Assembly (NCBI GenBank): GCA_951406725.2
Contig: OX597826.1
Coordinates: 51,708,001 to 51,772,000, forward strand
Length of the DNA stretch: 64,000 nucleotides
DNA from: Octopus vulgaris
Taxonomy: Eukaryota
Direction of reading: 5' to 3'
Part shown: piece by piece, positions 30,048 to 63,419 of the stretch
Layout: every line of letters begins with the position of its first letter
How positions within the stretch are numbered: the first letter of the stretch is position 1
Notes under the pieces: generated by a model
Told to the model about the DNA's origin: nothing
The model's database searches: none
What the model saw: the letters and a program-made list of their open reading frames with translations, nothing else
Position numbers and translations under genes: made by a program

Positions 30048-30205
30048 GAATGTGGTTTATTTTTCCCTTACCGCTTTCAGATCATACCCCAACTTTGATT
30101 TCTGTAGTATTTCACTCAATGGGATCATTCGTCCCGCTGGAAGATTCCTCTCTTGACTTTCACCTCTCCTAGTACTTGTTTCCCTATTGTAAATTCCTTT
30201 CTCCA
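30046..30205 (-). mobile_element. Inverted R4/Dong RT fragment
   Basis: Reverse complement (ctaggagaggtgaaagtcaagagaggaatcttccagcgggac^gaatgatcccattgagtgaaatact) aligns to ~32160-32335 with a ~27-bp deletion. Confidence 0.8.
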
Positions 30206-30210
30206 TAATC

Positions 30211-32662
<2,452 letters not shown>

Positions 32663-37429: not shown

Positions 37430-38885
37430 CTTTCAGTAACATCAAATTCACTCATCTGTCCACTAACACTCTCCAAGCTTTCCTATCATTTATAAACTCT
37501 CCTGCCTCTCACACTGCAACATTTCTAACCACCAAAGCTTGCCGCCCTCCATTCATCCACACCAACTGAGGTCTGCCTCTGGTTCTGCTGCCTACCACTT
37601 CTGCCTTCATCACCACCCTACCATCCGCTCCTCATCCATTATCTACATCTGACCAAATTATCTCAACATTCATCTATCCTTTTGGTTGTTAGTTTTTGTC
37701 TCATTCCTGTTCGCTTCACACCTCATTCCTCATCCTGTCCATCCATGTCACACCAACCATAGCCCTCAGACATCTCATTTCAAACACATATCGTCGCCTC
37801 CTTTTCGTCTCTTTCAGCCCTCACCCCGACTGTGCACCATATAGCATTGTAAGCACAATCACACCCTCATACACACCTCTTTTCGCATTCATACTCAACC
37901 TTTTATCTCTCAGCACACATTTTACAACTCCAAGTATATCATTCCCCTCCCTCTCTTTGTATCTCACTTCCTCAGCCAACACCCCATCCGCCGTAATATG
38001 TGATACTTAAAAACACTCATCTCCTCTAACATCTCACCATTTATACTTACATTCATCCTACCAGACATTCCATCTCTCGAACATCTCGTCACTTAACGCT
38101 TAGCTACATTCACTTTCAGTTTCCTCCCCTCACACGCACTTCTAAACTTCACCACTAGTTTCTTCAGTTGCTCTTTCGAATCTGCCACCAGTGCTGTATC
38201 ATCAGCAGACAACAACTGACTCACCTGCCATTTCTCTCCATTTTATCCTACCAATTGCCCCACCCTATCAAAGGTTCTCGCATTTACCTCTCTCACCACA
38301 TCATCCATATATAAATTAAACAGCCTGGGAGTCATCATACAACCCTGTCTTAAACCCAGCTTCACATCAAACCACTCACTTACTTCACCACCCACTCTCA
38401 CGTACGCCTTAATTTCTCTATAAGAACTCTGAACAGCTCTCAGCAGTCTACCATCTACTCCATACGACCGCAACAGCTGACACATTTCACACCTATCCAC
38501 AGTCATAGGCCTTCTCTAGGTCTATAAAGGCCTAATACACCCCCAACCTTTTGCCAAAAACGTCTCACATATATGCCTTACTACAAATATTTCATCTGCA
38601 CACCCTATTCTACTCCTAAAACCGCACTGCTCCTCCCATAGTACACACTCAGTGTGGTTCCTCACTTTTACAATCAGAATTCTTCCATACAGTTTATCAA
38701 ACACACACAACAAACTTATTGCTCTAAAATTTCCACACTCACATTTATCCCCTTTCCCCTTGCACAGTGCCACTATACAAGCACTAGGCCAGTCCTTCAG
38801 TACTCTTCCAGCCATATAAAAAACATTCATAAGCCTCACAAACCATTCAAATACTGTCACCCTTCCTTTCTTTAGGTATTCTACT
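37430..38885 (-). mobile_element. RTE-clade LINE, 5'-truncated RT and C-terminus, decayed
   Basis: ORFs 38522-39022 (KGKGDKCECGNFRAISLL, EEQCGFR) and 38243-38506 (GLRQGCMMTPRLFNLYMD), plus LLSADDTALVA near 38190-38220. Confidence 0.9.
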
Positions 38886-38986
38886 GTACACTCATACACA
38901 CACACATAAATATATGCATATACACATATAATATGTATATATATATATACTAACAAGTAAACATATATATATATACATGTATATAT

Positions 38987-39123
38987 AGTGGATGTGTGGT
39001 AAGTAGCTTGCTTACGAACCACATGGTTCCGGGTTCAGTCCCGCTGCGTGGCACCTTGGGCAAGTGTCTTCTACTATAGCCTTGTGAGTGGATTTGGTAG
39101 ACGGAAACTGAAAGAAGCCCGTC

Positions 39124-42637: not shown

Positions 42638-42674
<37 letters not shown>

Positions 42675-42897
42675 TCAATATAGGGTGGCAAAAAAAATTT
42701 TGTAGAATTCTTTTGCCACCAGCGGCCTAGTAGGAAAAAATTAAAATAGTCATAGACCATTTTTAAGTTCAACATCAACAATAAAGGAACGGCCATAATA
42801 GGCCATTCACCCACTAGAAATAACAGCCAAAGCTTCAACCGCAAATAAAAGTTAATTCAGTAAACCAGGAGAAAATTTTAAAAACATTTACCCTGTA

Positions 42898-43004
42898 ATT
42901 TCTTATACGATATACCGTTTCATCTGCTGATTAATGGTAAACTAACCTGATTAAATTAAATCAAGCCAATCTTCCACAGGCCCTCAGATTCTTCAGTAAG
43001 AAAT
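42898..43004 (-). ncRNA. Type I hammerhead ribozyme, array unit 1
   Basis: Minus strand reads auuucuua CUGAAGA aucug...cagau GAAA CGGUAUAUCG UA uaagaaau. It has a perfect 8-bp stem I, extended stem II, quasi-palindromic stem III and a GUA triplet. Predicted cut between 42906 and 42905. Confidence 0.92.
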
Positions 43005-43390
43005 AGCCCAAGACGGAACAGATATTTTCACGAGGCATTTCCGACGTTGCCAAGTTTATATCTGACCTAAAATTTTCAAATCGTCGCACTCGCGCCAAAT
43101 TTATCGGCAGCAAATAAATATAAGCCGTCGATTCCATTACGGAATTAACCAGAAAATTCATAATTAATCAATATAGGGTGGCAAAAAAAATTTTGTAGAA
43201 TTCTTTTGCCACCAGCGGCCTAGTAGGAAAAAATTAAAATAGTCATAGACCATTTTTAAGTTCAACATCAACAATAAAGGAACGGCCATAATAGGCCATT
43301 CACCCACTAGAAATAACAGCCAAAGCTTCAACCGCAAATAAAAGTTAATTCAGTAAACCAGGAGAAAATTTAAAAAACATTTACCCTGTA

Positions 43391-46300
43391 ATTTCTTATA
43401 CGATATACCGTTTCATCTGCTGATTAATGGTAAACTAACCTGATTAAATTAATTCAAGCCAATCTTCCACAGGCCCTCAGATTCTTCAGTAAGAAATAGC
43501 CCAAGACGGAACAGATATTTTCACGAGGCATTTCCGACGTTGCCAAGTTTATATCTGACCTAAAATTTTCAAATCGTCGCACTCGCGCCAAATTTATCGG
43601 CAGCAAATAAATATAAGCCGTCGATTCCATTACGGAATTAACCAGAAAATTCATAATTAATCAATATAGGGTGGCAAAAAAAAATTTTGTAGAATTCTTT
43701 TGCCACCAGCGGCCTAGTAGGAAAAAATTAAAATAGTCATAGACCAATTTTTAAGTTCAACATCAACAATAAAGGAACGGCCATAATAGGCCATTCACCC
43801 ACTAGAAATAACAGCCAAAGCTTCAACCGCAAATAAAAGTTAATTCAGTAAACCAGGAGAAAATTTAAAAAACATTTACCCTGTAATTTCTTATACGATA
43901 TACCGTTTCATCTGCTGATTAATGGTAAACTAACCTGATTAAATTAAATCAAGCCAATCTTCCACAGGCCCTCAGATTCTTCAGTAAGAAATAGCCCAAG
44001 ACGGAACAGATATTTTCACGAGGCATTTCCGACGTTGCCAAGTTTATATCTGACCTAAAATTTTCAAATCGTCGCACTCGCGCCAAATTTATCGGCAGCA
44101 AATAAATAAATATAAGCCGTCAATTCCATTACGGAATTAACCAGAAAATTCATAATTAATCAATATAGGGTGGCAAAAAAAATTTTGTAGAATTCTTTTG
44201 CCACCAGCGGCCTAGTAGGAAAAAATTAAAATAGTCATAGACCATTTTTAAGTTCAACATCAACAATAAAGGAACGGCCATAATAGGCCATTCACCCACT
44301 AGAAATAACAGCCAAAGCTTCAACCGCAAATAAAAGTTAATTCAGTAAACCAGGAGAAAATTTAAAAAACATTTACCCTGTAATTTCTTATACGATATAC
44401 CGTTTCATCTGCTGATTAATGGTAAACTAACCTGATTAAATTAAATCAAGCCAATCTTCCACAGGCCCTCAGATTCTTCAGTAAGAAATAGCCCAAGACG
44501 GAACAGATATTTTCACGAGGCATTTCCGACGTTGCCAAGTTTATATCTGACCTAAAATTTTCAAATCGTCGCACTCGCGCCAAATTTATCGGCCACAAAT
44601 AAATATAAGCCGTCGATTCCATTACGGAATTAACCAGAAAATTCATAATTAATCAATATAGGGTGGCAAAAAAGATTTTGTAGAATTCTTTTGCCACCAG
44701 CGGCCTAGTAGGAAAAAATTAAAATAGTCATAGACCATTTTTAAGTTCAACATCAACAATAAAGGAACGGCCATAATAGGCCATTCACCCACTAGAAATA
44801 ACAGCCAAAGCTTCAACCGCAAATAAAAGTTAATTCAGTAAACCAGGAGAAAATTTTAAAAACATTTACCCTGTAATTTCTTATACGATATACCGTTTCA
44901 TCTGCTGATTAATGGTAAACTAACCTGATTAAATTAAATCAAGCCAATCTTCCACAGGCCCTCAGATTCTTCAGTAAGAAATAGCCCAAGACGGAACAGA
45001 TATTTTCACGAGGCATTTCCGACGTTGCCAAGTTTATATCTGACCTAAAATTTTCAAATCGTCGCACTCGCGCCAAATTTATCGGCAGCAAATAAATATA
45101 AGCCGTCGATTCCATTACGGAATTAACCAGAAAATTCATAATTAATCAATATAGGGTGGCAAAAAAATTTTGTAGAATTCTTTTGCCACCAGCGGCCTAG
45201 TAGGAAAAAATTAAAATAGTCATAGACCATTTTTAAGTTCAACATCAACAATAAAGGAACGGCCATAATAGGCCATTCACCCACTAGAAATAACAGCCAA
45301 AGCTTCAACCGCAAATAAAAGTTAATTCAGTAAACCAGGAGAAAATTTTAAAAACATTTACCCTGTAATTTCTTATACGATATACCGTTTCATCTGCTGA
45401 TTAATGGTAAACTAACCTGATTAAATTAAATCAAGCCAATCTTCCACAGGCCCTCAGATTCTTCAGTAAGAAATAGCCCAAGACGGAACAGATATTTTCA
45501 CGAGGCATTTCCGACGTTGCCAAGTTTATATCTGACCTAAAATTTTCAAATCGTCGCACTCGCGCCAAATTTATCGGCAGCAAATAAATATAAGCCGTCG
45601 ATTCCATTACGGAATTAACCAGAAAATTCATAATTAATCAATATAGGGCTGGCAAAAAAAATTTTGTAGAATTCTTTTGCCACCAGCGGCCTAGTAGGAA
45701 AAAATTAAAATAGTCATAGACCATTTTTAAGTTCAACATCAACAATAAAGGAACGGCCATAATAGGCCATTCACCCACTAGAAATAACAGCCAAAGCTTC
45801 AACCGCAAATAAAAGTTAATTCAGTAAACCAGGAGAAAATTTAAAAAACATTTACCCTGTAATTTCTTATACGATATACCGTTTCATCTGCTGATTAATG
45901 GTAAACTAACCTGATTAAATTAAATCAAGCCAATCTTCCACAGGCCCTCAGATTCTTCAGTAAGAAATAGCCCAAGACGGAACAGATATTTTCACGAGGC
46001 ATTTCCGACGTTGCCAAGTTTATATCTGACCTAAAATTTTCAAATCGTCGCACTCGCGCCAAATTTATCGGCCACAAATAAATATAAGCCGTCGATTCCA
46101 TTACGGAATTAACCAGAAAATTCATAATTAATCAATATAGGGTGGCAAAAAAGATTTTGTAGAATTCTTTTGCCACCAGCGGCCTAGTAGGAAAACATTA
46201 AAATAGTCATAGACCATTTTTAAGTTCAACATCAACAATAAAGAAACGGCCATAATAGGCCATTCACCCACTAGAAATAACAGCCAAAGCTTCAACCGCA

Positions 46301-49300
46301 AATAAAAGTTAATTCAGTAAACCAGGAGAAAATTTTAAAAACATTTACCCTGTAATTTCTTATACGATATACCGTTTCATCTGCTGATTAATGGTAAACT
46401 AACCTGATTAAATTAAATCAAGCCAATCTTCCACAGGCCCTCAGATTCTTCAGTAAGAAATAGCCCAAGACGGAACAGATATTTTCACGAGGCATTTCCG
46501 ACGTTGCCAAGTTTATATCTGACCTAAAATTTTCAAATCGTCGCACTCGCGCCAAATTTATCGGCAGCAAATAAATATAAGCCGTCGATTCCATTACGGA
46601 ATTAACCAGAAAATTCATAATTAATCAATATAGGGTGGCAAAAAAATTTTGTAGAATTCTTTTGCCACCAGCGGCCTAGTAGGAAAAAATTAAAATAGTC
46701 ATAGACCATTTTTAAGTTCAACATCAACAATAAAGGAACGGCCATAATAGGCCATTCACCCACTAGAAATAACAGCCAAAGCTTCAACCGCAAATAAAAG
46801 TTAATTCAGTAAACCAGGAGAAAATTTTAAAAACATTTACCCTGTAATTTCTTATACGATATACCGTTTCATCTGCTGATTAATGGTAAACTAACCTGAT
46901 TAAATTAAATCAAGCCAATCTTCCACAGGCCCTCAGATTCTTCAGTAAGAAATAGCCCAAGACGGAACAGATATTTTCACGAGGCATTTCCGACGTTGCC
47001 AAGTTTATATCTGACCTAAAATTTTCAAATCGTCGCACTCGCGCCAAATTTATCGGCAGCAAATAAATATAAGCCGTCGATTCCATTACGGAATTAACCA
47101 GAAAATTCATAATTAATCAATATAGGGTGGCAAAAAATTTTGTAGAATTCTTTTGCCACCAGCGGCCTAGTAGGAAAAAATTAAAATAGTCATAGACCAT
47201 TTTTAAGTTCAACATCAACAATAAAGGAACGGCCATAATAGGCCATTCACCCACTAGAAATAACAGCCAAAGCTTCAACCGCAAATAAAAGTTAATTCAG
47301 TAAACCAGGAGAAAATTTAAAAAACATTTACCCTGTAATTTCTTATACGATATACCGTTTCATCTGCTGATTAATGGTAAACTAACCTGATTAAATTAAA
47401 TCAAGCCAATCTTCCACAGGCCCTCAGATTCTTCAGTAAGAAATAGCCCAAGACGGAACAGATATTTTCACGAGGCATTTCCGACGTTGCCAAGTTTATA
47501 TCTGACCTAAAATTTTCAAATCGTCGCACTCGCGCCAAATTTATCGGCAGCAAATAAATATAAGCCGTCGATTCCATTACGGAATTAACCAGAAAATTCA
47601 TAATTAATCAATATAGGGTGGCAAAAAAATTTTGTAGAATTCTTTTGCCACCAGCGGCCTAGTAGGAAAAAATTAAAATAGTCATAGACCATTTTTAAGT
47701 TCAACATCAACAATAAAGGAACGGCCATAATAGGCCATTCACCCACTAGAAATAACAGCCAAAGCTTCAACCGCAAATAAAAGTTAATTCAGTAAACCAG
47801 GAGAAAATTTTAAAAACATTTACCCTGTAATTTCTTATACGATATACCGTTTCATCTGCTGATTAATGGTAAACTAACCTGATTAAATTAAATCAAGCCA
47901 ATCTTCCACAGGCCCTCAGATTCTTCAGTAAGAAATAGCCCAAGACGGAACAGATATTTTCACGAGGCATTTCCGACGTTGCCAAGTTTATATCTGACCT
48001 AAAATTTTCAAATCGTCGCACTCGCGCCAAATTTATCGGCAGCAAATAAATATAAGCCGTCGATTCCATTACGGAATTAACCAGAAAATTCATAATTAAT
48101 CAATATAGGGTGGCAAAAAAATTTTGTAGAATTCTTTTGCCACCAGCGGCCTAGTAGGAAAAAATTAAAATAGTCATAGACCATTTTTAAGTTCAACATC
48201 AACAATAAAGGAACGGCCATAATAGGCCATTCACCCACTAGAAATAACAGCCAAAGCTTCAACCGCAAATAAAAGTTAATTCAGTAAACCAGGAGAAAAT
48301 TTAAAAAACATTTACCCTGTAATTTCTTATACGATATACCGTTTCATCTGCTGATTAATGGTAAACTAACCTGATTAAATTAAATCAAGCCAATCTTCCA
48401 CAGGCCCTCAGATTCTTCAGTAAGAAATAGCCCAAGACGGAACAGATATTTTCACGAGGCATTTCCGACGTTGCCAAGTTTATATCTGACCTAAAATTTT
48501 CAAATCGTCGCACTCGCGCCAAATTTATCGGCAGCAAATAAATATAAGCCGTCGATTCCATTACGGAATTAACCAGAAAATTCATAATTAATCAATATAG
48601 GGTGGCAAAAAAAATTTTGTAGGATTCTTTTGCCACCAGCGGCCTAGTAGGAAAAAATTAAAATAGTCATAGACCATTTTTAAGTTCAACATCAACAATA
48701 AAGGAACGGCCATAATAGGCCATTCACCCACTAGAAATAACAGCCAAAGCTTCAACCGCAAATAAAAGTTAATTCAGTAAACCAGGAGAAAATTTAAAAA
48801 ACATTTACCCTGTAATTTCTTATACGATATACCGTTTCATCTGCTGATTAATGGTAAACTAACCTGATTAAATTAAATCAAGCCAATCTTCCACAGGCCC
48901 TCAGATTCTTCAGTAAGAAATAGCCCAAGACGGAACAGATATTTTCACGAGGCATTTCCGACGTTGCCAAGTTTATATCTGACCTAAAATTTTCAAATCG
49001 TCGCACTCGCGCCAAATTTATCGGCAGCAAATAAATATAAGCCGTCGATTCCATTACGGAATTAACCAGAAAATTCATAATTAATCAATATAGGGTGGCA
49101 AAAAAAATTTTGTAGAATTCTTTTGCCACCAGCGGCCTAGTAGGAAAAATTAAAATAGTCATAGACCATTTTTAAGTTCAACATCAACAATAAAGGAACG
49201 GCCATAATAGGCCATTCACCCACTAGAAATAACAGCCAAAGCTTCAACCGCAAATAAAAGTTAATTCAGTAAACCAGGAGAAAATTTTAAAAACATTTAC

Positions 49301-52300
49301 CCTGTAATTTCTTATACGATATACCGTTTCATCTGCTGATTAATGGTAAATTAACCTGATTAAATTAAATCAAGCCAATCTTCCACAGGCCCTCAGATTC
49401 TTCAGTAAGAAATAGCCCAAGACGGAACAGATATTTTCACGAGGCATTTCCGACGTTGCCAAGTTTATATCTGACCTAAAATTTTCAAATCGTCGCACTC
49501 GCGCCAAATTTATCGGCAGCAAATAAATATAAGCCGTCGATTCCATTACGGAATTAACCAGAAAATTCATAATTAATCAATATAGGGTGGCAAAAAAATT
49601 TTGTAGAATTCTTTTGCCACCAGCGGCCTAGTAGGAAAAAATTAAAATAGTCATAGACCATTTTTAAGTTCAACATCAACAATAAAGGAACGGCCATAAT
49701 AGGCCATTCACCCACTAGAAATAACAGCCAAAGCTTCAACCGCAAATAAAAGTTAATTCAGTAAACCAGGAGAAAATTTAAAAAACATTTACCCTGTAAT
49801 TTTTTATACGATATACCGTTTCATCTGCTGATTAATGGTAAACTAACCTGATTAAATTAAATCAAGCCAATCTTCCACAGGCCCTCAGATTCTTCAGTAA
49901 GAAATAGCCCAAGACGGAACAGATATTTTCACGAGGCATTTCCGACGTTGCCAATTTTATATCTGACCTAAAATTTTCAAATCGTCGCACTCGCGCCAAA
50001 TTTATCGGCAGCAAATAAATATAAGCCGTCGATTCCATTACGGAATTAACCAGAAAATTCATAATTAATCAATATAGGGTGGCAAAAAAAATTTTGTAGA
50101 ATTCTTTTGCCACCAGCGGCCTAGTAGGAAAAAATTAAAATAGTCATAGACCAATTTTTAAGTTCAACATCAACAATAAAGGAACGGCCATAATAGGCCA
50201 TTCACCCACTAGAAATAACAGCCAAAGCTTCAACCGCAAATAAAAGTTAATTCAGTAAACCAGGAGAAAATTTTAAAAACATTTACCCTGTAATTTCTTA
50301 TACGATATACCGTTTCATCTGCTGATTAATGGTAAACTAACCTGATTAAATTAAATCAAGCCAATCTTCCACAGGCCCTCAGATTCTTCAGTAAGAAATA
50401 GCCCAAGACGGAACAGATATTTTCACGAGGCATTTCCGACGTTGCCAAGTTTATATCTGACCTAAAATTTTCAAATCGTCGCACTCGCGCCAAATTTATC
50501 GGCAGCAAATAAATATAAGCCGTCGATTCCATTACGGAATTAACCAGAAAATTCATAATTAATCAATATAGGGTGGCAAAAAAAATTTTGTAGAATTCTT
50601 TTGCCACCAGCGGCCTAGTAGGAAAAAATTAAAATATTCATAGACCATTTTTAAGTTCAACATCAACAATAAAGGAACGGCCATAATAGGCCATTCACCC
50701 ACTAGAAATAACAGCCAAAGCTTCAACCGCAAGTAAAAGTTAATTCAGTAAACCAGGAGAAAATTTAAAAAACATTTACCCTGTAATTTCTTATACGATA
50801 TACCGTTTCATCTGCTGATTAATGGTAAACTAACCTGATTAAATTAAATCAAGCCAATCTTCCACAGGCCCTCAGATTCTTCAGTAAGAAATAGCCCAAG
50901 ACGGAACAGATATTTTCACGAGGCATTTCCGACGTTGCCAAGTTTATATCTGACCTAAAATTTTCAAATCGTCGCACTCGCGCCAAATTTATCGGCAGCA
51001 AATAAATATAAGCCGTCGATTCCATTACGGAATTAACCAGAAAATTCATAATTAATCAATATAGGGTGGCAAAAAAATTTTGTAGAATTCTTTTGCCACC
51101 AGCGGCCTAGTAGGAAAAAATTAAAATAGTCATAGACCAATTTTTAAGTTCAACATCAACAATAAAGGAACGGCCATAATAGGCCATTCACCCACTAGAA
51201 ATAACAGCCAAAGCTTCAACCGCAAATAAAAGTTAATTCAGTAAACCAGGAGAAAATTTAAAAAACATTTACCCTGTAATTTCTTATACGATATACCGTT
51301 TCATCTGCTGATTAATGGTAAACTAACCTGATTAAATTAAATCAAGCCAATCTTCCACAGGCCCTCAGATTCTTCAGTAAGAAATAGCCCAAGACGGAAC
51401 AGATATTTTCACGAGGCATTTCCGACGTTGCCAAGTTTATATCTGACCTAAAATTTTCAAATCGTCGCACTCGCGCCAAATTTATCGGCAGCAAATAAAT
51501 ATAAGCCGTCGATTCCATTACGGAATTAACCAGAAAATTCATAATTAATCAATATTGGGTGGCAAAAAAAATTTTGTAGAATTCTTTTGCCACCAGCGGC
51601 CTAGTAGGAAAAAATTAAAATAGTCATAGACCATTTTTAAGTTCAACATCAACAATAAAGGAACGGCCATAATAGGCCATTCACCCACTAGAAATAACAG
51701 CCAAAGCTTCAACCGCAAATAAAAGTTAATTCAGTAAACCAGGAGAAAATTTAAAAAACATTTACCCTGTAATTTCTTATACGATATACCGTTTCATCTG
51801 CTGATTAATGGTAAACTAACCTGATTAAATTAAATCAAGCCAATCTTCCACAGGCCCTCAGATTCTTCAGTAAGAAATAGCCCAAGACGGAACAGATATT
51901 TTCACGAGGCATTTCCGACGTTGCCAAGTTTATATCTGACCTAAAATTTTCAAATCGTCGCACTCGCGCCAAATTTATCGGCAGCAAATAAATATAAGCC
52001 GTCGATTCCATTACGGAATTAACCAGAAAATTCATAATTAATCAATATAGGGTGGCAAAAAAAATTTTGTAGAATTCTTTTGCCACCAGCGGCCTAGTAG
52101 GAAAAAATTAAAATAGTCATAGACCATTTTTAAGTTCAACATCAACAATAAAGGAACGGCCATAATAGGCCATTCACCCACTAGAAATAACAGCCAAAGC
52201 TTCAACGGCAAATAAAAGTTAATTCAGTAAACCAGGAGAAAATTTTAAAAACATTTACCCTGTAATTTCTTATACGATATACCGTTTCATCTGCTGATTA

Positions 52301-52863
52301 ATGGTAAACTAACCTGATTAAATTAAATCAAGCCAATCTTCCACAGGCCCTCAGATTCTTCAGTAAGAAATAGCCCAAGACGGAACAGATATTTTCACGA
52401 GGCATTTCCGACGTTGCCAAGTTTATATCTGACCTAAAATTTTCAAATCGTCGCACTCGCGCCAAATTTATCGGCAGCAAATAAATATAAGCCGTCGATT
52501 CCATTACGGAATTAACCAGAAAATTCATAATTAATCAATATAGGGTGGCAAAAAAATTTTGTAGAATTCTTTTGCCACCAGCGGCCTAGTAGGAAAAAAT
52601 TAAAATAGTCATAGACCATTTTTAAGTTCAACATCAACAATAAAGGAACGGCCATAATAGGCCATTCACCCACTAGAAATAACAGCCAAAGCTTCAACCG
52701 CAAATAAAAGTTAATTCAGTAAACCAGGAGAAAATTTAAAAAACATTTACCCTGTAATTTTTTATACGATATACCGTTTCATCTGCTGATTAATGGTAAA
52801 CTAACCTGATTAAATTAAATCAAGCCAATCTTCCACAGGCCCTCAGATTCTTCAGTAAGAAAT
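43391..52863 (-). ncRNA. Twenty further copies of the same 107-nt hammerhead (units 2-21)
   Basis: Left coordinates: 43391, 43886, 44383, 44876, 45368, 45862, 46355, 46847, 47338, 47830, 48322, 48815, 49307, 49799, 50293, 50786, 51279, 51772, 52265, 52757. Cores are unchanged as far as read. Confidence 0.9.
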
Positions 52864-53203
52864 AGCCCAAGACGGAACAGATATTTTCACGAGGCATTTC
52901 CGACGTTGCCAAGTTTATATCTGACCTAAAATTTTCAAATCGTCGCACTCGCGCCAAATTTATCGGCAGCAAATAAATATAAGCCGTCGATTCCATTACG
53001 GAATTAACCAGAAAATTCATAATTAATCAATATAGGGTGGCAAAAAAAATTTTGTAGAATTCTTTTGCCACCTGGTTTAGTGAATTAACTTTTATTTGCG
53101 GTTGAAGGTTTGGCTGTTATTTCTAGTGAGTGAATGGCCTATTATGGCCGTTCCTTTATTGTTGATATATATATATATATATATATATTAATATATATAT
53201 ATG

Positions 53204-61895: not shown

Positions 61896-61944
<49 letters not shown>

Positions 61945-61951
61945 ATATATA

Positions 61952-62040
<89 letters not shown>

Positions 62041-62043
<3 letters not shown>

Positions 62044-62593
62044 GGCATTATTACACATACATGCCACACGCTAAGAGGGACAATTAGTCATTTCTACCAA
62101 AAAATTTTACTAATCATACCCAATGCAATTTTTCAAAGTAAGACATTTAAAAAATGAATTTAGTCTTGTATCACCTGTGATTTCGTACTTACCGCAGTTG
62201 CGACCGTACTCATCAGCAAGACTGATTCTGAACATATCATAAATAAACGACCCCGTACCGTCAAAGCCGAACAGCTATCTGCTCCACTTCAACGACGCAC
62301 ATGGGGAAGTTTACATATAATACATCCGGTAAATGGCAGGCTTCTTCGAATTGCATTTCGGGTAGGAAAAGTTTTTTCGGAATAAAATTATTTAACAATT
62401 AAGGATAACTTCTTAATAAGGGATCTTAACAAGAAATTATCAGGTAGATAGCGTGAAAAACCTCATAAGAGAAAAATTTCGAAAATAATTCTTTCTTATT
62501 GAACATATTAATTTATATATAGAGGGCATTATTACACATACATGCCACACGCTAAGAGGGACAATTAGTCATTTCTACCAAAAAATTGTTAAA

Positions 62594-62598
<5 letters not shown>
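62041..62598 (-). mobile_element. 481-bp-period hammerhead element: one unit, 66-bp direct repeat and 15-bp inverted tail, in (TA)n
   Basis: 62041-62106 is identical to 62522-62587; 62584-62598 is the reverse complement of 62386-62400. (TA)n on both sides. Confidence 0.85.
62156..62228 (-). ncRNA. Type I hammerhead ribozyme (intact core)
   Basis: Minus strand reads agucuug CUGAUGA guac...guac GAAA UCAC-AG-GUGA UA caagacu. It has a 7-bp stem I and an AUA triplet. Predicted cut between 62169 and 62168. Confidence 0.88.
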
Positions 62599-62639
<41 letters not shown>

Positions 62640-62640
<1 letters not shown>

Positions 62641-63023
62641 GTGTGTGTCTCTGTGTTTGTCCCATCACCACCACTACCACTTCTCTGTGGGTGTGTTTGC
62701 GTCCCCGCAACTTAGCGGTTCGGTAAAAAGGTTTGATAGAATAAGTACCAGGTTTAAAAAATAAGTACTGAGGTCCATTCATTCGATTGAAATAAAAATT
62801 TCAAGGCGGTGCCCCAGCCTGAAACAGGTAAAAGGTATAAAAGATAAAGGATATGTAGTACCTGTGGTAAGTAGCTTGCTTACAAACCACATGGCTCCGG
62901 GTTCAGTCCCACTGCGTGGCATCTTGGGCAAGTGTCTTCTACTATAGCCTCGAGCCGACCAAAGCCTTGTGAGTGGATTCGGTAGACGGAAACTGAAAGA
63001 AGCCCGTCGTATATATATATATG

Positions 63024-63058
<35 letters not shown>

Positions 63059-63253
63059 TTGTGTGTCTGTTTTTGTCCGCCTATCATTGCTTGACAGCCG
63101 ATGCTGATATGTTCATGTCTCTGTCACTTAGCGGTTCGGCAAAAGAGACCAATAGAATAAGTACTAGGCTTAGAAAGAATACGTCCCGGGGTCGATTTGC
63201 TCGACTAAATTTGATGCTCCAGCATGGCCGCAGTCAACTGACTGAAACAAGTA
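62640..63253 (+). mobile_element. Two tRNA/CORE-type SINE copies (3' half 62640-62850; near full 62862-63253)
   Basis: gtggtaagtagcttgct...ggttcagtcccactgcgtggc...actgaaacaagtaa. Confidence 0.85.
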
Positions 63254-63419
63254 ATATATATATATTATATTGTGAGTTGAATTGCATCCTGGCGAAACTT
63301 TACGTTTACTCGTTCTAGGATCGGTAAAATAGAACATCAGACAAATACTGCGTCGGTGATCTTAGTAATCCTCTTTCTTTATAATTGCTGGTTTTGTGTC
63401 TAAATCAGAAATTAAACGC

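Follow-up and report, generated by a model that had tools for sequence, protein, structure and literature searches.

A 64-kb stretch of Octopus vulgaris DNA (the window) contains, at 62041–62598, a short repeat element with a period of 481 nt that is set between two (TA)n tracts. Tracts of this kind make up 3.5% of the window. The target tract at the RNA 3′ end of the element spans 61953–62040 and the one at its other end spans 62598–62639. Between them lie a full non-coding unit of 481 nt on the minus strand (62041–62521; 34% G+C, with strong self-pairing predicted), a second, 5′-truncated unit of 66 nt on the same strand (62522–62587), which forms a partial tandem copy like a pseudo-LTR, and a 15-nt inverted arm on the plus strand (62584–62598). 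Read along the ribozyme strand, the order is inverted arm, 66-nt truncated unit, full unit and TA tract. Because the insertion sits inside (TA)n, a target-site duplication cannot be defined.

The truncated unit repeats, letter for letter, the 66 nt at the RNA 3′ end of the full unit (62041–62106, minus strand), and the identity continues leftwards for another 8 nt (TATATATA), giving 74 nt with 0 mismatches. These 8 nt are the last of the TA tract and also match the unit junction of the element, a likely priming microhomology. The inverted arm is the exact reverse complement of 62386–62400 on the minus strand and is joined to the end of the repeat through a shared AATT (62584–62587). A 15-nt match of this kind arose in 0 of 5000 shuffles, and a match of the 11 nt outside the AATT overlap in 12 of 5000. 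The 481-bp period with its identical terminal direct repeat, and the inverted tail with its AATT microhomology, were reported in a preliminary description of this DNA and are borne out here. The two ends yield a putative proximal start of reverse transcription at 62041 and a candidate distal start at 62386, the latter counted on a circular or tandem template.

Each of these points lies beside a predicted hairpin on the minus strand: a small one at 62044–62065 beside the proximal start, and a long one at 62404–62441 whose end lies some 18 nt to the 5′ side of the distal start. The unit as a whole is predicted to fold more strongly than its shuffles, with z −5.8 in circular form (60 shuffles) and z −6.5 in linear form (0 of 100 shuffles as strong), in line with retrozyme circles, which are described as highly self-paired. 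Its coding capacity is slight. With the unit circularised, its two longest frames from ATG reach 39 and 41 aa, 0 of its 7 frames matched Pfam at E 0.1, and the element contains no open reading frame (ORF) for a reverse transcriptase (RT) and GIY-YIG endonuclease; among 14 other frames scanned in the window, no ORF of a Penelope-like element (PLE) was recognised. Pol III A and B boxes, searched for by consensus, are absent from the element. The motif AGAGGG occurs twice in 62040–62079, 34 nt apart, a spacing close to the classical PLE tail length, and might mark a short PLE-type tail inside the element end. Some relatives of the element carry a tandem duplicate of the small terminal hairpin (loose contig ends at 62050 and 62547).

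Several other features lie in the window, whose wealth of microsatellites and whose retroelement fragments point to animal DNA. Directly to the right of the element, at 62650–63260 on the plus strand, are two SINE-like repeat pieces, 75% alike over 67 nt, which presumably resemble an abundant octopus SINE. Broken ORFs between (AAT)n tracts at 30108–31498 (plus strand) give a weak zf-RVT match (E 0.016) and presumably resemble the C-terminal part of a restriction-like-endonuclease non-LTR retrotransposon. A reverse transcriptase fragment lies at 38522–39034 on the minus strand (Pfam RVT_1, E 0.0014, below the curated cut-off). Finally, a third hammerhead-like motif, at 2698–2780 on the minus strand, has a stem I of 5 bp, a stem II of 6 bp with a long insert and a short palindromic stem III. 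It lies about 200 nt from a (TA)n tract at 2386–2501, shows no similarity to the rest of the window, has six frames nearby without a Pfam match and is possibly the end of another Penelope-type element.

The predicted hammerhead ribozyme

The minus strand of the full unit carries a type I hammerhead with its core at 62223–62162. A stem I of 7 bp is followed by CUGAUGA, a stem II of 4 bp closing a 17-nt insert, GAAA, a stem III of 4 bp and an AUA site, which places the predicted cut between 62169 and 62168; stem I lengthens by another 4 bp, extending the span to 62156–62228. None of 3000 dinucleotide shuffles of the element reproduces the pattern. At the level of sequence, then, the intact hammerhead that the preliminary description had placed at this span stands, but folding and profile searches do not add to it: the best predicted fold (−19.3) is an alternative structure, with the active fold at −17.2, 2.1 kcal/mol above it, and Rfam gave no hammerhead match at the gathering threshold in the window and none among 24 matches to E 10 in 61900–62800. 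Only one of nine predicted Xenopus elements cleaved in vitro (bioRxiv 10.64898/2026.07.22.740005), and the ribozyme of an anole PLE required protein (PMC11167929); an intact hammerhead sequence would not by itself be proof of activity.

The element holds a single CUGANGA, and a scan that covers split-core layouts in part found no second or permuted core in it. Two consecutive complete hammerheads, by which Li et al. recognise an 'active' copy, are therefore not present in this copy, which has one ribozyme.

Relatives in public sequencing runs bear on the stems. In contigs from four runs examined over 62024–62250, five stem substitutions are listed, including two compensatory pairs: 62168 and 62217 covary from G-C to A-U in stem I, and 62186 and 62208 from U-A to C-G in stem II. 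Variants at 62166 and 62206 retain G-U pairing. One contig (depth 5.4) certainly has both compensatory pairs, together with a core change at U4. Each of the four compensatory letters is also among those listed in three other runs, in which no position of the hammerhead core varies at 2% or more. In the runs examined over the whole element, a stem I change at 62164 breaks its pair unless the partner changes as well, and the partner change is absent among the 40 of 93 rows listed.

Two further observations concern the region around the cut. Stem III (62170–62181) is near-palindromic, and one subfamily (loose ends at 62153–62155) has it perfectly palindromic about a single base, a form in which a double-hammerhead fold would be favoured. 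Separately, two contigs match the element only from 62168, the predicted cut, upward (run X4 record 31, with 83 unlike letters beyond that point, and run X5 record 17, with 65); they could stem from insertion primed at a cleaved RNA end or from a subfamily with another downstream part.

Family copies and relation to known elements

Parts of the stretch are present in 20 of the 24 listed sequencing runs, which come from eight studies and bear three organism labels. We examined eight of the 24 by contig. Over the whole element, four runs gave 1470, 1469, 1048 and 56 contigs, and over 62024–62250 the other four gave 1468, 442, 87 and 20, with many variants in both sets. Single contigs reach a depth of 14,778, compared with about 20–60 for others in the same run, a contrast that points to hundreds of family copies or more, summed depth not being a copy number. 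The preliminary description had named a lack of other genomic copies, together with a lack of cleavage, as the outcome that would speak against it; such copies are abundant.

The ends of these copies are informative. The unit-to-unit junction form recurs in other runs (X10), with no listed contig covering an entire unit and no multimer of the family seen among them. At other loci in run X15, among the 24 of 110 loose-end rows and 32 of 2034 pieces listed, contigs start at 62024–62037 behind flanks rich in TA and end at 62073 or 62218, where TA runs follow; the end at 62073 is seen in run X8 too. These ends fit an RNA 3′ end that is fixed and a 5′ truncation that varies. In four runs, 26, 16, 8 and 3 contigs (53 in all) diverge together after 62081, and this sister subfamily has only the last ~45 nt (62035–62081) in common with the family. 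That shared stretch, with the small hairpin at 62044–62065 inside it, is possibly the signal by which the reverse transcriptase recognises its template. We also note a 1032-nt contig (run X10 record 6) that ends in the hammerhead (62156–62235); its 952 unlike letters, on the RNA 3′ side, might derive from flanking DNA or from the main part of a longer element that possibly codes for protein. A search for relatives in metagenomes and viruses gave 0 matches to a 22-nt pattern and six metagenome loci with an 18-nt pattern; all six are alike over just 18–25 nt and were set aside as chance matches.

The element looks like a new family within a known class, the animal retrozymes, and not like a new kind of element. 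Metazoan non-LTR retrozymes, described from coral, mussel and axolotl (PMC7229834, bioRxiv 10.64898/2026.07.22.740005), likewise combine a type I hammerhead with a short, self-paired, non-coding unit of low G+C content and high copy number. They occur as monomers and as arrays, and their mobilisation by PLEs from circular RNA has been proposed. Where the class is expected to have less than 45% G+C and a short non-coding unit, the element has 34% and 481 nt, the latter compared with about 170–400 nt in the invertebrates studied. Li, Clavereau and Pollet (bioRxiv 10.64898/2026.07.22.740005) argue that animal retrozymes are non-autonomous PLE sequences and report that monomers are common. By its sequence features, the octopus element agrees with a metazoan non-LTR retrozyme and would work like a non-autonomous PLE. 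Insertion ends, which we analyse here, are not analysed in the parts of those two papers available to us. More widely, in literature listings with little coverage of subscription papers, no title or opening of an abstract on octopus or cephalopod hammerheads, ribozymes, Penelope elements and retrozymes, or on twin priming or inversion in such elements, contains a description of this family or of retrozyme insertion ends, although the supplements of the preprint may include relevant families.

The published footprint of PLEs consists of a truncated copy before a full copy (the pseudo-LTR), an inverted 5′-truncated copy and (TA)n targets (PMC8557442), and each feature has its counterpart here in the partial tandem, the inverted arm at the 5′ end and the (TA)n target. 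The same pseudo-LTR, inverted arm, AT-rich or (TA)n target and microhomology joins are described for endonuclease-positive (EN+) PLEs such as Penelope/Poseidon, Neptune, Nematis and Naiad (PMC8557442, PMC3846280, PMC11167929). Those elements encode an RT/GIY-YIG protein, whereas the present one has no such ORF and was rejected as an autonomous PLE on that ground. Non-autonomous Chlamys elements, for example MRC1, are also short PLE derivatives with pseudo-LTRs and head-to-tail arrays (PMC8557442); they belong to a green algal clade and are described there without canonical hammerheads, and the likeness is one of description only. Plant LTR retrozymes, as summarised in bioRxiv 10.64898/2026.07.22.740005, are non-coding hammerhead elements with terminal direct repeats as well, but have a type III hammerhead in both LTRs and 4-bp target duplications. 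This identity was ruled out, since the single type I hammerhead of the octopus element lies outside its 66-nt repeat.

The neighbouring array and the putative start points of reverse transcription

A second hammerhead repeat occupies 42667–53167 of the window as an array of 21 units of 493 nt, plus 54 nt of another unit and a 96-nt inverted arm (unit offsets 108–203). Its unit has a sequence different from that of the 481-nt unit, as the preliminary description had stated: the best local alignment has an E value of 0.62. Block shuffles reach the global identity of 51% in 30 of 300 cases and dinucleotide shuffles in 2 of 300; when the ribozyme is left out, 66 of 300 block shuffles do as well as the real pair. 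Homology between the two was rejected as not significant. To call the families independent, as had been done, nevertheless overstates the case, for although no sequence homology was detected, element and array agree in strand, in (TA)n target and in the spacing of their start points.

The inverted arm of the array differs at 3 of 96 sites, compared with 28 of 10,343 sites at which the units depart from their majority (P = 0.002), and units 4 and 7 have variants in common, as do units 5 and 8, which suggests the duplication of a three-unit block. The array has probably changed locally since insertion, unless it was copied from mixed templates. Local change allows growth in place; it does not tie the array to a 1.1-mer ancestor. 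The proposal that a copy like the present one is the seed from which the 21-mer grew is unsupported: the element has one ribozyme and just 66–74 nt of self-homology, and a collapsed array would look identical.

The start points of the two insertions can be compared by their distance from the predicted cut. In the 481-nt element, the downstream distance is 128 nt for the direct arm and 264 nt for the inverted arm, an offset of 136 nt. In the 21-mer, the shorter distance, 132 nt, belongs to the inverted arm and the longer, 239 nt, to the direct arm, an offset of 107 nt. The roles of the arms are thus swapped between two starts at about 130 and 240–265 nt. In each family the distal start comes about 16–18 nt after a long hairpin, the array hairpin being placed like that at 62404–62441, and the proximal start comes after a small one. 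The offsets far exceed the 30–40 bp published for the tails, or start offsets, of EN+ PLEs. The distance of the proximal start from the cut is, by contrast, a point of likeness, at roughly 100 nt in both: in the anole PLE, copying starts 85–92 nt 3′ of the hammerhead cut, by subtraction from the published positions (PMC11167929), and here the figure is 128 nt. Two low-depth contigs of run X5 (records 22 and 23), among 32 of 4059 pieces listed, match from 62389 and 62390 onward, preceded by some 80 unlike letters, and fit a second start near 62386. The case for two starts is suggestive, drawn from two loci and from two contigs with unseen flanks.

Together, these distances raise the tentative idea, which we regard as possible but rather doubtful, that retrozyme families distinct in sequence share one geometry in this genome, with reverse transcription starting about 130 and about 240–265 nt past the cut, each time beside a hairpin, and with either start able to feed the long or the inverted arm.

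Template and proposed insertion route

The element is best read as a 1.14-unit copy of a high-copy, non-coding, 481-nt type I hammerhead repeat, a metazoan non-LTR retrozyme, likely put into (TA)n by the RT and endonuclease of a PLE acting on an RNA that was likely circular or an uncleaved tandem. We give this reading a probability of about 0.8. The RNA 3′ end of the insert lies 128 nt downstream of the predicted cut, and the insert, 547 nt long, runs on through the intact site. A cleaved linear monomer would end after those 128 nt; the template must therefore have been a circle or an uncleaved multimer, or the enzyme must have jumped between templates. If a single linear RNA had served both arms, it would need at least 683 nt with the second start 3′ of the first, or at least 841 nt with the second start 5′ of it. 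Copying of a ligated circle for more than a unit was proposed for PLEs in 2014 (PMC4209133) and for retrozymes in 2020 (PMC7229834). A circle is not required, because uncleaved RNA was the main template of the anole PLE in vitro (PMC11167929).

The route could have been as follows. A source array would be transcribed on the hammerhead strand, and its RNA may, judging from the class, be cut and ligated into a 481-nt circle. Both strands of the TA tract would then be nicked. One strand would prime at 62041, copy through the intact cut site once round and halt 66 nt into the next round, giving the observed product, while the other would prime at the distal start, 62386, and copy 15 nt. The two cDNA ends would finally be joined via AATT, where the overlap is seen. 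Cleavage and extension of both target strands, and internal initiation at two defined sites, are reported for a PLE enzyme (PMC11167929). Because a single ribozyme does not allow release of a monomer by double cleavage, this copy is more likely offspring than source.

Of the alternative accounts, the one that comes closest assigns the inverted arm to ordinary L1-like twin priming at a chance internal AT-rich site, with no second fixed start. Rich in A and T, the site could have paired with a TA end, and inversions made by twin priming show a deletion inside and microhomology at the junction (PMC2837659); a circle, or else an RNA of 841 nt or more, would have to serve as template. Yet the starts of two other contigs fall no more than 4 nt from this site, in both families the starts lie at like distances from the cut, each by a hairpin, and a PLE protein initiates at defined internal sites on both strands (PMC11167929), which leaves chance priming unlikely, if still a serious contender. 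Less probable, and in our view quite unlikely, is that the same family and enzyme inserted a longer array, which was afterwards reduced to 1.14 units, either through recombination of its units or in assembly, so that the locus would be a remnant and neither a record of 1.14 rounds nor a seed. Whole-unit loss would keep both ends, the neighbouring array is terminated in the same way, with 54 nt and an inverted arm next to its 21 units, and the variants shared by its units 4 and 7 and by units 5 and 8 are what unit-level exchange would be expected to leave. On the other hand, pieces shorter than a unit, about 33 and 178 nt long and bounded by TA runs, at other loci indicate that short direct insertions occur, the repeats are identical over 74 nt, which allows little time, and the 21-mer is preserved whole in the same assembly. 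The claim of the preliminary description that reverse transcription went slightly more than once around a circular or tandem RNA accordingly holds for the read-through of the uncut site and is less firm for the figure of exactly 1.14 rounds, given that array collapse would leave the same ends.

That the element is the truncated terminal repeat of an autonomous PLE, and not a free-standing non-coding unit, would accord with the residence of type I hammerheads in PLE terminal repeats (PMC4209133), and the 952 unlike letters of the X10 contig and the 53 contigs that diverge after 62081 could belong to such a longer element. The 481-nt period, however, means a template in which the unit led again into its own end, ORF and Pfam match are absent and the junction form is present in other runs, all of which makes this account very improbable. 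A target-site or chance local duplication around an unrelated 415-nt insert would also leave identical direct repeats flanking an interior, but is largely refuted: coverage of the repeat is among the deepest in the family, other runs show it joined directly to the interior, and unique flanks begin only beyond the TA tracts.

How PLE enzymes make tandem and inverted insertions is stated as an open step in PMC8557442. The retrozyme insertion at this locus offers a clean, short case with readable ends, in which a Penelope-type footprint, read-through of an uncut site and a start spacing common to a neighbouring family occur together. If the shared geometry is true, a Penelope-type enzyme acting as a dimer would prime from both strands of the target on a single RNA circle, the classical 30–40-bp tail would be the short case of a variable spacing between starts, and such insertions would directly record rolling reverse transcription in the genome. 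Should two fixed starts hold genome-wide, they would define minimal RNA signals for an in vitro test of tandem and inverted PLE insertion.
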